Source of the DNA: a virus
Taxonomy: Duplodnaviria; Heunggongvirae; Uroviricota; Caudoviricetes
IMG/VR virus record: IMGVR_UViG_3300045988_147489
Span: 20,848-84,847 of that record
Strand: one strand, 5' to 3'
DNA length: 64,000 bases
In this document: positions 29,930 through 60,255 of the stretch, in pieces
How the letters are laid out: every line of letters begins with the position of its first letter
Position numbering within the stretch: the first letter of the stretch is position 1
Made by a program: the position numbers and the translations under genes
Notes under the pieces: generated by a model
Seen by the model: only the letters and a program-made list of their open reading frames with translations
What the model was told of the DNA's origin: nothing
Database searches by the model: none

Positions 29930-30045
29930 TCTTTTAAAAGACACCACCAGAACAACTCCCTTCCGTTTCCACTTCCAAAAACTGCCACCAGTCGCTATCA
30001 TCCGCTCATTGTGATAAGTAAGTAACTACCTACCAGGTGAGCCAC

Positions 30046-36324: not shown

Positions 36325-36523
36325 ACGGGAGAAGGAAACGCTTCATGAAATCAGTAAGTGGCCGGAGTTCCCTGAGTACTGGAAGCCTAAAACGCGAGCT
36401 AAGTTAGAGCGTTTAGGGTTGGTTGCAAACGTTTCTGAAACGAAGTGTTCGGCCAACTACCAGTTAACTGATAAAGGGAAAGTATTGCTACAGCAATTAG
36501 TAGAATCAGGAGTGTTAAAATGA
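36308..36523 (+). CDS. hypothetical small protein
   Basis: 71-aa ORF, start overlaps previous gene. Confidence 0.35.
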   Translation: MIVLSKREKETLHEISKWPEFPEYWKPKTRAKLERLGLVANVSETKCSANYQLTDKGKVLLQQLVESGVLK

Positions 36524-36672: not shown

Positions 36673-36959
36673 GCAATTTAACTTCTTGGGACTGGTGGTT
36701 GGCCACCTATTTCTTAGCGGCCGGAGTCGCATTCGCCTTTTACGTAGGTCAGTTAGTCGTAAAACTGTTGCTGATTAAATTTGCTAGTCATAAACGTATC
36801 GATGATGGTCTGTGGCGTCTTGGCACCCTGGTGGAAACTCGCTACGGGCAACTTAAGGAGAACGAAACCATTACTATCCAGGCGAAACGATTCACTGCCA
36901 CCATCACAAGAACACCTAGTCGTAGAGTGGCCTTGATCAAAAAAGTCACAACCGAATAA
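36669..36959 (+). CDS. small membrane protein (96 aa), paralogue 3
   Basis: N-terminal TM helix then basic region; start overlaps previous stop (ATGA). Confidence 0.4.
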   Translation: MSNLTSWDWWLATYFLAAGVAFAFYVGQLVVKLLLIKFASHKRIDDGLWRLGTLVETRYGQLKENETITIQAKRFTATITRTPSRRVALIKKVTTE

Positions 36960-37195
36960 AAACATCATGATAAGTATTTACTTACTTATCTTTTATGTAT
37001 AAGATGACTTTGTTTTCGTTGAGACGCGACTGTTTGAACTTAAATACAAGTGCAAACGAAGAAGTCTATCTGGCAGTAGCCTAATAAGCCAAACACCAGC
37101 GAGGTCAGTTTCCAGCCTCGTTACCGAAATGGGACACACTGAGCGAGTGTGATTGCAGAACGCAGGAGGGAACATTCATGTTCCCTCCGATGAAG

Positions 37196-37273
37196 TAACA
37201 GAATGGGCGGTTGGTATATTTTCAACTCCATATGACTCCCGGATTCTTAGCCTCTGACCGCCCATCCTGTTAC
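37196..37273. repeat. long-range inverted repeat A (about 17-bp arms, 2 mismatches)
   Basis: TAACAGAATGGGCGGTT ... GACCGCCCATCCTGTTA. Confidence 0.5.
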
Positions 37274-37347
37274 GTCATTTTGTTCAATTATGTCGTTTAT
37301 ACTGGGTTAAAAAGCGGCGACGTAGCCCGGCTGGTATGGTTAGCCAG

Positions 37348-37471
37348 CACACAACGTTGAGGCCATTACATTTTTATCAATTCTAAGGTTCTATTCACAG
37401 AGATACCGGCGAGCGTTGATATGTAACATGTTGGGCAAACATTCAATCGGAGTAGTGGCCTCAACGTTGTG
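37348..37471. repeat. long-range inverted repeat B (16-bp perfect arms, 92-nt spacer)
   Basis: CACAACGTTGAGGCCA ... TGGCCTCAACGTTGTG. Confidence 0.6.
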
Positions 37472-37737
37472 AAGACAGGATTGTTGTGTAGGTTTAACCA
37501 CTGTTGCCATTGGTGCCTGTTTTCACAACAAATGATTCCATACATCACATTGTATAAATTACAAAGTAGGTGCTGTCCTCAGAAACATCATCTACTTAAA
37601 GATTTTGCCTTCTACTATTGAGCGAAGTCGAAAGCGTCTGGCACTAACGAAAAGTGCAAGTAGCGGTGCGTTTCCTGGCAGAAACTAAACCGTCGCGATT
37701 GGCACTGTTGAGTAATAAATACTGGCAGTGCTGAATT

Positions 37738-37812
37738 GATGGTGTAGCTCAGCGGTAGAGCAGTTGGCTGTTAACCAACTGGTCGGTGGTTCGAATCCAC
37801 CCACCATCGCCA
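37738..37812 (+). tRNA. tRNA-Asn (anticodon GTT)
   Basis: cloverleaf folded by hand: 7-bp acceptor GATGGTG/CACCATC, anticodon loop CTGTTAA, T-loop GGTTCGAATCC, CCA end. Confidence 0.8.
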
Positions 37813-37817
37813 ATTTA

Positions 37818-37904
37818 GGGGAGTTAGTCCGTAGAGGTAGCGGTGTAGACTGTAAATCTACTGTCATGGCGACTCGGGTGGTTCGACTCCATCACTCCCC
37901 ACCA
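37818..37904 (+). tRNA. tRNA-Tyr (anticodon GTA), long variable arm
   Basis: acceptor GGGGAGT/ACTCCCC, anticodon stem-loop GTAGA-CTGTAAA-TCTAC, T-loop GGTTCGACTCC, CCA end. Confidence 0.75.
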
Positions 37905-37908
37905 AATT

Positions 37909-37984
37909 GCCGGTTTAGCTCAGTTGGTAGAGCGCCTGCCTTGTAAGCAGGATGTCAGCGGTTCGAGTCCGTTAACCGGCACCA
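37909..37984 (+). tRNA. tRNA-Thr (anticodon TGT)
   Basis: acceptor GCCGGTT/AACCGGC, D-arm GCTCAGTTGGTAGAGC, anticodon loop CTTGTAA, T-loop, CCA end. Confidence 0.8.
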
Positions 37985-37992
37985 ACATAATA

Positions 37993-38073
37993 TTGAGAAC
38001 ATTGGCGTAACGGGTTCATATCCCAATTTATGAATATAATGTTGCGTTGCAGCGTGACAACCAGTGTTCTCAA
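37993..38073. repeat. long-range inverted repeat C immediately 3' of tRNA-Thr
   Basis: TTGAGAACATTGG ... CCAGTGTTCTCAA (1 mismatch). Confidence 0.5.
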
Positions 38074-38278
38074 CATTGTGGTGAATGCACAGGCTGATGT
38101 GCGACGTAGAAGCAAGCGGATGAACTGCCTGAAGGCCGCTAACGTAGGCAATGCCGGAGATCAGCACCGGCCATCACAATTTGGCTCTCTTGCAACAGCA
38201 TAACGCTGAAATACGTCCAACCTGGTGCGGTCTGATCACCCGCCGTTAGCTCCACGAAACGGAGCACACAACACAATT

Positions 38279-38365
38279 GGAGAGTAGGGAGCATGGTGCT
38301 CAAGCGGTCTTGAAAACCGTCCCATTGTGCAAACGATGATGGTTCGATTCCATTACTCTCCGCCA
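38279..38365 (+). tRNA. tRNA-Ser (anticodon TGA), long variable arm
   Basis: acceptor GGAGAGT/ACTCTCC, anticodon stem-loop GCGGT-CTTGAAA-ACCGT, T-loop GGTTCGATTCC, CCA end. Confidence 0.65.
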
Positions 38366-38367
38366 GA

Positions 38368-38445
38368 CACAGCGTTGAGCGGTTTGGCCTTTTAATCAAC
38401 CAGATTAAGACTCCGCTAACATAAACCAGACCGCTCAACGCTGTG
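38368..38445. repeat. long-range inverted repeat D immediately 3' of tRNA-Ser (16-bp perfect arms)
   Basis: CACAGCGTTGAGCGGT ... ACCGCTCAACGCTGTG; arm sequence resembles repeat B. Confidence 0.6.
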
Positions 38446-38499
38446 ATAGACAATTACGGCAGACGTTCTTAACCATAGCTTGCTAACATCCTAGCAACA

Positions 38500-38542
38500 C
38501 TTTTTTCAGCGCAAAATTCAAAGGGGCTTCGGCCCCTTTTTT
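38500..38542 (+). terminator. terminator-like element; also copy 1 of a direct repeat flanking the lipoprotein gene
   Basis: TTTTCAGCGCAAAATTCAAAGGGGCTTCGGCCCCTTTTTT. Confidence 0.55.
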
Positions 38543-38658
38543 GATTTGTTGACACTTAGTTATATTCACGTATCGTTTTATCGCTTTGATCCGAGGCAGC
38601 GTTAGACTGCCTTCATGTTCCTGATTAGATCGCAGCAGTTAAACATGGAGACAAATTA

Positions 38659-39213
38659 ATGAAGAAGTGCCATCTCAATATTTTCGCATCTCTAATAATT
38701 GCGTTAACACTAACAGGGTGTAACGAATCTGAAATAGATGAATTAACGTTAATAGGCAAAGATAAAAGTGAACTTGAACAAAATTATAAAGCCCAATTCA
38801 AGAAGCTAACACAAAATGTTGAAGTGTTTATTCTTCAAGATAAAAATAGTCCGACTGAAAAAGAACCGCATACGAATGGCAACCTGATCGACGGAAAAGT
38901 CGAAATGTCATTAACCAGTAATGTTGGTAAGTATACATTCATCCAGATAAGTGAAATGCTGACAAAGGAGTACGGAAAACCCGTTGCTACAAAAGATCGT
39001 GTTTTTAACAGAGAAGCAGTATCTGGCATGGACTGTATTGAAACTAAAACTTGTGGAGCTGGTAAATATTATGAAATCTTTCGAGGGAAGGATAGATTGA
39101 TTATGGTGTCAAACGGTGCCGGTCTTTTACACGAAAAGGAAGGTGTAACACTACTCACCATCACCGATAAACAATTTAAATTTTCTCGTTTAGAAGAAGA
39201 TAAAATAAAATAA
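38659..39213 (+). CDS. putative lipoprotein (AT-rich cargo gene)
   Basis: signal peptide ending in lipobox LTGC; visibly AT-rich codon usage unlike neighbours. Confidence 0.5.
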   Translation: MKKCHLNIFASLIIALTLTGCNESEIDELTLIGKDKSELEQNYKAQFKKLTQNVEVFILQDKNSPTEKEPHTNGNLIDGKVEMSLTSNVGKYTFIQISEMLTKEYGKPVATKDRVFNREAVSGMDCIETKTCGAGKYYEIFRGKDRLIMVSNGAGLLHEKEGVTLLTITDKQFKFSRLEEDKIK

Positions 39214-40793: not shown

Positions 40794-40932
40794 TAAATAT
40801 TAACTAAATTAAGTTGTGATTAACAGGCAAGTTTACGATGTATTGCAGACATTAAATAGGTTTTTACTTACCTATCTTTTATAGTAATATTTATTTTCTG
40901 GTTAAGTAACACATAATTATTATGAGGTAAAC

Positions 40933-60001: not shown

Positions 60002-60255
60002 CCCTCCAGATCGTATATTGGCGTAGATAGAATCTACGCCTCCTCAAAATAGCTCTCATAGCGTTCTACAGTGATCCTGTCTTATTTTTAGTCATACAGA
60101 CAAGCAAAGTTGCTCCACAATAAATAGGTATATACTTACTTATAAATTTTGTATATTAAGACGCTCGTTTCATTCCTAACATACCGTTATGCATAGTTGT
60201 TTACCTTCTCATTGCTCTTAAAATTTGTATCAAAATAACCACAAAGGAAAAACAC

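Follow-up and report, generated by a model that had tools for sequence, protein, structure and literature searches.

What are the four long-range inverted repeats that lie among the tRNA genes of a tailed phage, and what do they do there? The question arose in IMG/VR record IMGVR_UViG_3300045988_147489 (Caudoviricetes), of which one stretch of 64,000 nucleotides (nt), here called the window, was analysed. Judged by its matches, the window is an SSU5/pHCM2-type phage-plasmid of E. coli; the closest plasmid match was NZ_CP083480 (98.7% identity over the entire 1.8-kb query) and the closest phage matches were Cyrano and CMS-2020a, with weaker partial matches to P1, P7 and D6. The repeats are named A to D, neighbouring modules E, X and B2, and L-numbers are locus labels of compared records. 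By sequence comparison, B, C and D are members of a phage-wide hairpin family with a conserved base, 5'-CACAAC...GUUGUG-3'; this family is conserved and was previously uncatalogued. The hairpins stand in a protein-free unit that also holds a start-less tag module resembling transfer-messenger RNA (tmRNA), and this module is a more surprising finding than the hairpins.

All four repeats were recovered by the repeat finder where a preliminary description had placed them, and ranked top in its output; B and D were the two best short-range inverted repeats of the entire window. The arms, earlier given as 13–17 bp, were actually longer (20–23 nt at 83–95% complementarity). On the + strand, hairpin A occupied 37190–37278 (arms 37190–37211 and 37257–37278, 22 nt, 91% complementary), hairpin B 37350–37471 (arms 37350–37369 and 37452–37471, 20 nt, 95%), hairpin C 37983–38083 (arms 37983–38005 and 38061–38083, 23 nt, 83%, core 37993–38073) and hairpin D 38368–38445 (arms 38368–38387 and 38426–38445, 20 nt, 95%). 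Folded as + strand RNA they reached -33.6 to -47.8 kcal/mol, and none of 200 dinucleotide shuffles folded as well (z = -5.7, -6.8, -4.8 and -9.9 for A to D respectively; for C, z was -3.4 on the - strand). Stems measured 19–27 bp and loops 38–82 nt. Hairpin A had a 25–27-bp stem and a loop with a conserved UCCCGG(A/U)UUC; B had a 19–20-bp stem and an 82-nt loop with conserved motifs CCACAGAG, AUGUUGGG..AACAU and AAUCGG; the loop of D (ACACAGCGUUGAGCGGUUUGG...) combined a variable mini-hairpin with an invariant AAGACUCCGC. The relatedness of B and D first seen was borne out and extended to C, all three sharing an arm sequence (CTCAACGTTGTGA / CTCAACATTGTGG / CTCAACGCTGTGA; repeat family D3) and outer ends of the form CACA[A/G]CG...CG[U/C]UGUG (repeat families D3 and D8). 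The arms of A were unrelated, and A is a separate element; the four repeats are not one family.

To follow these structures through evolution, 73 related loci were gathered via the upstream open reading frame (ORF), their flanking protein being 60–100% identical to that of the window. The order was constant in relatives (hairpin A, hairpin B, one or more tRNAs, a hairpin abutting the last tRNA), and many long nucleotide blocks of the leader were invariant even where the flanking protein was only 60% identical. Pairing was compared with 500 shuffles and with controls in which the partners were slid. For hairpin B (alignment A1, 19 pairs), 98.5% of cells were paired and four pairs had changed on both sides, with swaps such as GAGGCC/GGCCUC to GAGAUC/GAUCUC, GAGACC/GGUCUC or GAAGCC/GGCUUC; none of the 500 shuffles equalled the alignment in percentage of pairing or in covariation score, and sliding the partners left 26–56% of cells paired. 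Hairpin D (alignment A2, 20 pairs) had 99.6% of cells paired and two compensatory pairs, while hairpin A (alignment A3, 25 pairs) had three compensatory pairs, and A was present in 31 distinct variants; across hairpins, slid partners gave 23–56% against 98.5–99.6% observed. The + strand contained 14, 15 and 57 G-U cells in B, D and A respectively, but only 1, 1 and 2 A-C or C-A cells. Since an A-C cell on the + strand is how a wobble on the minus strand would appear, the totals of 86 against 4 indicate selection on RNA, that is, on a transcript of the + (tRNA) strand. Stems maintained down to 60% flanking identity by compensatory and wobble changes on one strand point to conserved structured RNA. 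Loss of pairing in relatives had been set beforehand as refutation; instead, pairing was kept, and the early suggestion of small structured RNAs agrees with the alignments of A, B and D.

Module order in the window was as follows: tag RNA; A; B and B2; tRNA-Asn, -Tyr and -Thr; C, E and X; tRNA-Ser; D and a trailer. Hairpin C abutted the CCA of tRNA-Thr (which ends at 37984) and opened a variable cassette; D began 2 nt past the CCA of tRNA-Ser (which ends at 38365), as expected from the earlier remark that the last two repeats lie near tRNA 3' ends. In SSU5-like elements generally, the family hairpin started 0–2 nt past the CCA of the last tRNA, and every SSU5-like relative had D after its last tRNA, which was Asn or, in L050, His. 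No hairpins lay between the tRNAs for Asn, Tyr and Thr, which are 4–5 nt apart. Family members occurred also in P1, HK620 and Klebsiella siphoviruses; hairpin A, without the CACAAC motif, was confined to SSU5-like elements. Among 23 members, stems were 17–24 bp and loops 31–87 nt. Across 32 unrelated context types the family hairpin, where present, usually started 111 or 119 nt past the start of the tag, directly 3' of the second pseudoknot of that module, and in at least nine contexts an E or STnc100-like module began with its 5' end directly where the hairpin stopped. The neighbours were of a few kinds: a tRNA CCA end or the tmRNA-like tag module on the 5' side, and STnc100/PasD-like RNAs on the 3' side.

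The terminal GUUGUG can pair either back with its own CACAAC or forward with the CACAAC closing the next module, as for B with B2 (37466–37529) and C with E (38075–38083). Module B2, on the + strand, was closed by GUUGUGAAGACAGG / CCUGUUUUCACAAC (inverted repeat of 14 nt, 93%); the GUUGUG at 37466–37471 was common to it and to the 3' arm of B, such that two helices compete for six nucleotides. In relatives B2 was a stem of 14–21 bp (e.g., GTTGTGAAATTAGGTTCAGTA...TGTAGAGCCTGGTTTCACAAC in L068). The P1 match leads to the C1-controlled ban operon, whose long leader contains tRNA-Asn, tRNA-Thr and then four like hairpins; one was a direct homologue of C, and was followed by a homologue of window positions 38075–38180. 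Some modules in L123 and L112, closed by an acceptor-like stem GUUGUGG/CCACAAC, plainly came from tRNAs: their D and T arms were canonical, though they had no CCA. Pairing across modules, between the 3' arm of one hairpin and the 5' arm of the next after the manner of tmRNA helix 2, was also considered and rejected, being worse than local pairing (L011).

The narrow range of stem lengths beside widely differing loops, the position at boundaries and the hairpin-free junctions between tRNAs were counted in favour of a role as processing and stabilising punctuation that would delimit the RNAs of the operon. We give this proposal slightly less than an even chance, and regard its mechanism as plausible by analogy. 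A stem about two helical turns long, starting 0–2 nt past a tRNA CCA or tag module and stopping where the next RNA starts, would be cut by an endonuclease specific for double strands, RNase III for example, perhaps together with RNase P at tRNA-like neighbours. What is left of the stem would then shield the 3' and 5' ends so created against exonucleases and RNase E, and the stems would stand in for the single-stranded trailers where RNase E normally cuts after a tRNA. The choice of GUUGUG between pairing back, in the hairpin, and forward, with the next module, could order folding and cleavage; at the repeated junction sequence, recombination adds, removes and swaps cassettes made of a hairpin and a small RNA (sRNA). 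The double-stranded RNA that E. coli RNase III cuts has to be about 20 bp long, or two turns, and the stem lengths in the window (19–27 bp) and among the 23 family members agree with this. Of the earlier idea of processing or termination signals, the first part fits the location of the hairpins exactly at module boundaries and the second part does not stand.

RNase III stems are known from the rRNA operon (16S and 23S), the T7 early region (R1–R5), the lambda N leader and sib, and DicF from the dicB operon. These are likewise inverted-repeat stems of about 20 bp, enclosing or abutting a functional RNA between cistrons of one transcript, and their remnants stabilise the products, whereas here cleavage is a proposal only. 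The present hairpins differ in having loops of only 38–82 nt, a conserved CACAAC/GUUGUG base and exchangeable cassettes with an sRNA. Another likeness is with species I and II of T4 (rnaC and rnaD), which are stable RNAs encoded in the tRNA gene cluster, with a long terminal stem; RNase III is said to cleave species I RNA in vitro, in work of the 1970s by Paddock, Fukada, Abelson and Robertson. As commonly described, these too are structured, non-tRNA small RNAs co-transcribed with phage tRNAs; unlike them, the hairpins form a family of many members with a junction motif, spread across temperate phages and phage-plasmids.

Several points weigh against punctuation. The argument for RNase III consists of stem length and analogy. 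Conserved single-stranded motifs were present in the loops (AAGACUCCGC in D, UCCCGGNUUC in A, CCACAGAG and AAUCGG in B), which a pure spacer would not need, so the hairpins may have functions of their own; motifs singled out within the hairpins included AAGACUCCGC and UCCCGGAUUC, and one loop type, GGGGCUUGGCUUAAAUGCA, was common to Felix-O1-like and MK54-like phages, which are unrelated. Hairpin A was without the family motif and away from any tRNA boundary. The pairing statistics for A, B and D derive from few events in related sequences and amount to consistency rather than proof, and the number of compensatory pairs in hairpin D was no better than that in shuffles (423/500).

The E module (38075–38180, +) is a small RNA of cloverleaf-like form, closed by AUUGUGGUG / CAUCACAAU, with a 5' hairpin (GCACA-GGCUGA-UGUGC) and a 3' hairpin (GCCGG-AGAUCAGCA-CCGGC). 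Its closure across copies was UUGUGGUG/CAYCACAA; 24 distinct homologues showed covariation in all three helices, and two loops were complementary (CUGAU/AUCAG), while the single-sequence minimum free energy was not significant (z = -0.6). In architecture E appears akin to the STnc100/PasD family of prophage sRNAs: the closing stem UGGUGAAU...CACCA and the 3' hairpin CCGG-loop-CCGG of STnc100 were found both in E and in the module after hairpin 4 of P1 and D6. Hairpins A to D themselves fell outside that family. A permissive Rfam scan (E<=10; gathering threshold 47 bits) returned no match to the E module of the window, and its relatives in P1 and D6 scored 33.4 and 39.6 bits against STnc100 (RF02076), below the 47-bit threshold. 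STnc100 is related to the PasD sRNAs, and PasD adjoins the Q antiterminator (bioRxiv 10.64898/2026.05.13.724894); the HK620 array is likewise beside Q. The X module (38181–38278, +) contained a conserved hairpin, GCUCC-ACGAAAC-GGAGC, and ended in CACACAACACAAUU just before tRNA-Ser; homologous stretches were present in P1, L112, L117 and L178, and it recurred in several lambdoid arrays.

Hairpin-plus-sRNA units turned over as cassettes. At the site between tRNA-Thr and tRNA-Ser (37984–38279 in the window), otherwise near-identical plasmids had 0, 1 or 2 cassettes of at least four kinds. The site was empty in Cyrano (CCA-ACACAATT-Ser), which had no hairpin C; it contained C, E and X in the window, a different hairpin and an E-like module in CP053388, a hairpin and an STnc100-like module in L019 and L037, and two cassettes in L002, L034 and L062. 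Other hairpins replaced C in L003 and L019. Cassette junctions fell in a repeated CAACA(T/C)AAT / CACAAC motif; in L182 hairpin B had been lost exactly between its two AACGTTG copies, and in L180 a single hairpin had arms of two types (AAGAGCA and UGAUCUU). The tRNA content of relatives varied also, Tyr being present or absent and His replacing Asn in L050. Recombination at junction repeats clearly happens. Were the stems punctuation, this would explain how tRNAs and regulatory RNAs can be combined in one transcript and swapped as cassettes by phages.

Four other explanations were weighed. The main competitor, which could hold together with a punctuation role, is that each hairpin is a functional small RNA, its stem a scaffold or excision handle and its loop the active part (seed, sponge, protein decoy, or a mimic of tRNA or tmRNA aimed at a defence nuclease or host factor); this seems possible, but we are inclined to doubt it. 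It gains from unpaired motifs that stay invariant while the rest of the loop varies (AAGACUCCGC in every variant of D, UCCCGG(A/U)UUC in A, CCACAGAG / AAUCGG in B), from loop types kept across unrelated phages, from near-perfect T-arms in some family members (CAGAG-TTCGACT-CTCTG in L002; GAGGG-TTCGAAT-CCCTA in P1 and L117), and from the Pnkp homologue, MetRS and ASCH-domain protein that Cyrano also encodes. Moreover, the E and STnc100/PasD modules adjoining the hairpins are relatives of known Hfq-dependent sRNAs (bioRxiv 10.64898/2026.05.13.724894). No partner for the loop motifs was found within the window, however, and the loops differ wholly between family members, whereas the base of the stem and the location at a boundary are conserved; B was cleanly lost in L182 and L073, and C is dispensable in Cyrano. 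If the hairpins were instead DNA-level recombination sites, like integron attC or mosaic-boundary sequences, by which tRNA and sRNA cassettes pass from phage to phage, RNA structure would be incidental. The different cassette contents of near-identical plasmids, with their end-points in the CACAAC motif, the precise loss of B in L182, the mixed arms in L180 and the presence of the same modules in P1, HK620, Felix-O1-like phages and siphoviruses all accord with such sites, and attC elements resemble the hairpins in size, in being imperfect inverted repeats found where cassettes meet, and in having one folded strand under selection. Yet the 86 G-U against 4 A-C cells show the + strand selected as a single strand, and the hairpins are always oriented as the tRNAs, inside a promoter-to-terminator unit; both observations fit RNA. 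No common recombinase or integrase was linked across the P1, HK620, Felix-O1-like, MK54-like and SSU5-like contexts, there was no extrahelical-base signature, the ends read CACAAC...GTTGTG with no attC core sites (RYYYAAC...GTTRRRY), and short direct repeats yield such deletions through ordinary recombination or slippage. The recombination sites first suggested are upheld as end-points of cassette gain and loss, while a role at the DNA level is unlikely given the strand-specific wobbles.

Two further readings fared worse. Decayed tRNA genes, left functionless by turnover of the tRNA cluster, might be suspected from the tRNA-derived modules of L123 and L112, the variable tRNA content (Tyr and His, as above) and the T-arm-like segments in C and several family members. 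When T-loops (UUCRANY on a 5-bp stem) were examined, C had GGG-UUCAUAU-CCC and its relatives GGGGUCAUAUCCC; the members in P1, L002 and L117 had perfect T-arms, and B and D had none. The T-arm-like GGGTTCATATCCC reported earlier in C is thus present but not conserved, reading GGGGTCATATCCC in L002, L008 and P1. Permissive Rfam searches (E<=10; tRNA, tRNA-Sec, tmRNA and YrlA models) over 36900–38700 gave no tRNA-clan match on A to D, and ARAGORN called only the tRNAs for Asn, Tyr, Thr and Ser. Stems of 19–27 bp are not tRNA-like, and compensatory pairing persisted across divergent hosts, as would not be expected of pseudogenes. Ordinary tRNA pseudogenes find no support here; conserved pairing has already largely refuted that reading, which we rate very improbable. 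Nor did Rfam, at gathering or permissive thresholds, identify a known hairpin family in the window, P1, D6, HK620 or MK54, producing only chance-level miRNA and snoRNA matches; YrlA (RF02553) had no match on the hairpins, its weak 25.6-bit matches overlapping true tRNAs of P1 and D6. Finally, terminators or attenuators controlling read-through into downstream tRNAs and genes deserve hardly any credence. The hairpins are stable, contain G+C and lie in a long leader, and the HK620 homologue lies in the pR'-tR' late leader, an antitermination site, but no U-tract followed any of A to D, hairpins with stems near 20 bp and loops of 38–82 nt do not resemble intrinsic terminators, and the tRNAs downstream of A, B and C must be transcribed. 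The only terminator found in the unit was at 38520–38545, and the termination signals first envisaged are discounted for the same reasons.

The tag module lay at 37012–37165 on the + strand, had a 5' region UUUUCGUUGAG..GCGACUG.. and gave weak matches to Rfam tmRNA models (RF00023, RF04321 and RF01850; 14–26 bits, below 47 bits, in the tag region only). It contained a start-less frame of ten codons at 37052–37084, GCA AAC GAA GAA GTC TAT CTG GCA GTA GCC TAA, encoding ANEEVYLAVA*, with a second TAA at 37085–37087. The stop codon of the tag was in the loop of a hairpin (CUGG 37070–37073 / CCAG 37096–37099, +), and two predicted pseudoknots followed on the same strand: pseudoknot a (CGAGG 37100–37104 / CCUCG 37116–37120; UUCC 37110–37113 / GGGA 37131–37134) and pseudoknot b (about 37134–37165). 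Pseudoknot stems covaried (UGAGG/CCUCA, CGAGG/CCUCG, CAAGG/CCUUG and CAGGG/CCCUG in one set; GCCCG/YGGGC, GCCCUGA/UCAGGGC and GACGGGAG/CUCCCGUC in another). The tmRNA tag of E. coli is ANDENYALAA. The module was similar to tmRNA (SsrA, including two-piece permuted forms) in its start-less, resume-codon-like GCA AAC GA. start, in the resemblance of the phage tag ANxxx[YF]LAVA*, with its hydrophobic and Ala-rich C-terminus, to that of E. coli, in the stop codon within a hairpin loop and in the two predicted pseudoknots thereafter. It differed in that tmRNA has an acceptor stem, T-arm, G3:U70 and CCA, none of which was found for the tag module in the window or in Cyrano.

A scan of IMG/VR for the tag pattern returned 110 contexts with 24 distinct tag nucleotide sequences, each of exactly ten codons plus stop and conforming to A-N-[DE]-[DENT]-x-[YF]-L-A-V-A. 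Synonymous variation was plentiful (GAC/GAT, GAA/GAG, TAT/TAC, TTC/TTT, GCC/GCT/GCG, TAA/TAG/TGA), and 85 of the 110 contexts had an in-frame stop upstream and no ATG, GTG or TTG before the tag. By blastn, the module was present in 320 phage records of unrelated types, its carriers including Felix-O1-like myoviruses (in the tRNA cluster), the P22-like HK620, Klebsiella siphoviruses and an Aeromonas phage. Tags were located in P1 (L077, ~1043–1075, ANDDLMMVAA*), HK620 (L079, ~1211–1243), wV8 (L080) and MK54 (L081). In HK620 the module lies in the late leader, from pR'-qut to tQ; this version (tag module, hairpin and E) had prophage matches in 157 of 5,426 complete E. coli genomes, 84 of them over at least 80% of its length, and was unannotated in nearly all E. 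coli records listed. More generally, the tag module had no non-coding RNA (ncRNA) annotation in the records examined.

Searches for the missing half of a tmRNA, the tRNA-like domain (TLD), were negative. When the window and the 108-kb Cyrano genome were searched for such a domain (a T-arm and 7-nt strand plus NCCA; a complement of UUUUCG plus CCA), only known tRNAs emerged. ARAGORN found no tmRNA in the window at default or mildly relaxed settings, and the nine calls made with -ps60 were indistinguishable from noise. Loops of the upstream hairpins were considered as a permuted TLD and rejected, being unrelated between contexts and absent where the promoter adjoins. The leader had no complementarity of 9 nt or more to E. 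coli tmRNA, a comparison made with an approximate query; a variable-gap tag scan of genome contigs gave mostly chance matches and perhaps, among the matches listed, genuine tmRNA genes of other phyla. A literature search produced nothing specific on a tmRNA-like element in phages or on these hairpins. In an exhaustive ssrA survey of 543 phages, mycobacteriophages and Bacillus phage G were the only ones reported to have tmRNA, and mycobacteriophage DS6A has a TLD-only remnant that inhibits tmRNA, so phages can carry half a tmRNA (PMC4131195). DS6A has the TLD half alone, and the tag module here is the opposite half.

Taken jointly, these observations permit a broader and more speculative interpretation, which we hold only tentatively and think rather less probable than not. 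The hairpins would be the punctuation of an undescribed, horizontally mobile ncRNA cassette system shared by enterobacterial phages as different as P1, SSU5-like phage-plasmids, HK620, Felix-O1-like myoviruses and Klebsiella siphoviruses. At the root of this system would stand an orphan tmRNA messenger domain with two pseudoknots and without a TLD, whose start-less tag AN..x[YF]LAVA would be translated via the Ala-tmRNA/SmpB of the host on rescued ribosomes, or would interfere with trans-translation by the host. If true, the tag module would be the first messenger-only relative of tmRNA, present in classic model phages, and would offer a direct way into the question of how ribosome rescue is used or subverted by phages. 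That lambda-immP22 and Mu need tmRNA is known from genetics.

A separate observation concerns wV8 (L080, 1403–1486; also L098), where an unannotated tRNA-like sequence lay ~165 nt downstream of the tag module. It had an acceptor CGGGGCG/CGCCUCG with G3:U70, A73 and CCA, which are alanine identity elements. Its T-arm was good and its anticodon-like loop read UCU, there was no D-arm, and ARAGORN did not call it. Other Felix-O1-like phages had a normal tRNA-Arg(UCU) in its place.

The unit to which all these modules belong had no credible ORFs, from the stop (36959) of an ORF of 96 aa to the next credible gene (38659). Its features suggest a protein-free, ~1.5-kb unit at about 37012–38545 (+), bounded by a conserved operator-like promoter and a terminator. 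The presumed start of this non-coding operon comprises an operator-like palindrome, ATAAGTATTTACTTACTTAT, and a weak sigma-70-like promoter, TTTACT-17-TAAGAT (36970–37005, +); the transcript presumably begins near 37012. The palindrome was invariant even in relatives with a flanking protein 60% identical, and a promoter scan did not flag the promoter at 36970–37005 (8/12 matches). Felix-O1-like and MK54-like phages had a strong promoter (TTGACA-17-TATAGT/TAGATT) at an equal distance upstream of an identical UUUUCG... start. The palindromic motif ATAGGTAnTTACTTACnTAT occurred four times in the window against 0 expected, at 36970–36989 (+), where it overlapped the promoter of the RNA operon, 30014–30033 (-), 40856–40875 (+) and 60124–60143 (+); by comparison with the C1 operator before the homologous ban operon of P1, it is probably a phage repressor operator or a phage-specific promoter element.

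Within the unit, ARAGORN identified, all on the + strand, tRNA-Asn(GUU) at 37738–37812 (Rfam 75.5 bits), tRNA-Tyr(GUA) at 37818–37904 (41.6 bits), tRNA-Thr(UGU) at 37909–37984 (74.9 bits) and tRNA-Ser(UGA) at 38279–38365, for which the top Rfam model was tRNA-Sec at 44.8 bits, under the threshold of that model. Two smaller + strand hairpins accompanied A and B. The one at 37165–37188 was a perfect 11-nt inverted repeat, GGAGGGAACAT / ATGTTCCCTCC, replaced in relatives by other complementary sequences (e.g., GGATAGGGCATG...CATGCCCTATTC); the other, GCUGG-UAUGGUUAG-CCAGC at 37330–37348, directly upstream of B, was kept in all relatives, with a compensatory variant in L053 (GCTGAC...GTCAGC). The 3' trailer (38446–38545, +) consisted of AUAGACA..CGGCAGACGUUCUUAACCAUAG and a hairpin, GCUUGCUA..UAGCAAC, then a U-run and the intrinsic terminator identified by the terminator scan; it was conserved in relatives with 80% flanking-protein identity.

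Clusters of phage tRNAs are usually annotated as tRNAs accompanied by junk or dubious small ORFs; here, the same kind of region appears as a conserved, modular and purely RNA-coding operon of ~1.5 kb. Annotated proteins did overlie the conserved RNA: plp and upl in P1 (L077, 1575–2144), 'C-type natriuretic protein' at the leader in SSU5 and many plasmids, and CYRAN_40 in Cyrano (L001, 3963–4175). The annotations plp, upl and CYRAN_40 were on the strand opposite to the RNA modules, and all four are probably not genes.

Two minor features of these elements may be recorded. The motif AATGATTCCATAC had five copies in the window against 0.14 expected, at 36519, 37531, 41258/41278 (an inverted pair) and 47308; one copy was a perfect palindrome near the integrase/repressor region, one started a 50-aa ORF, and that within the RNA operon was invariant in all relatives, so the motif is possibly a protein-binding site. 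The whole genome of Cyrano (L320–L322) encoded a T4 Pnkp-like polynucleotide kinase-phosphatase, MetRS, a protein with an ASCH RNA-binding domain and TciA/TciB homologues, and a DNA ligase gene adjoined its RNA operon; this set of RNA-repair and translation genes in Cyrano-type phage-plasmids may be functionally tied to the operon of tRNAs and ncRNAs.

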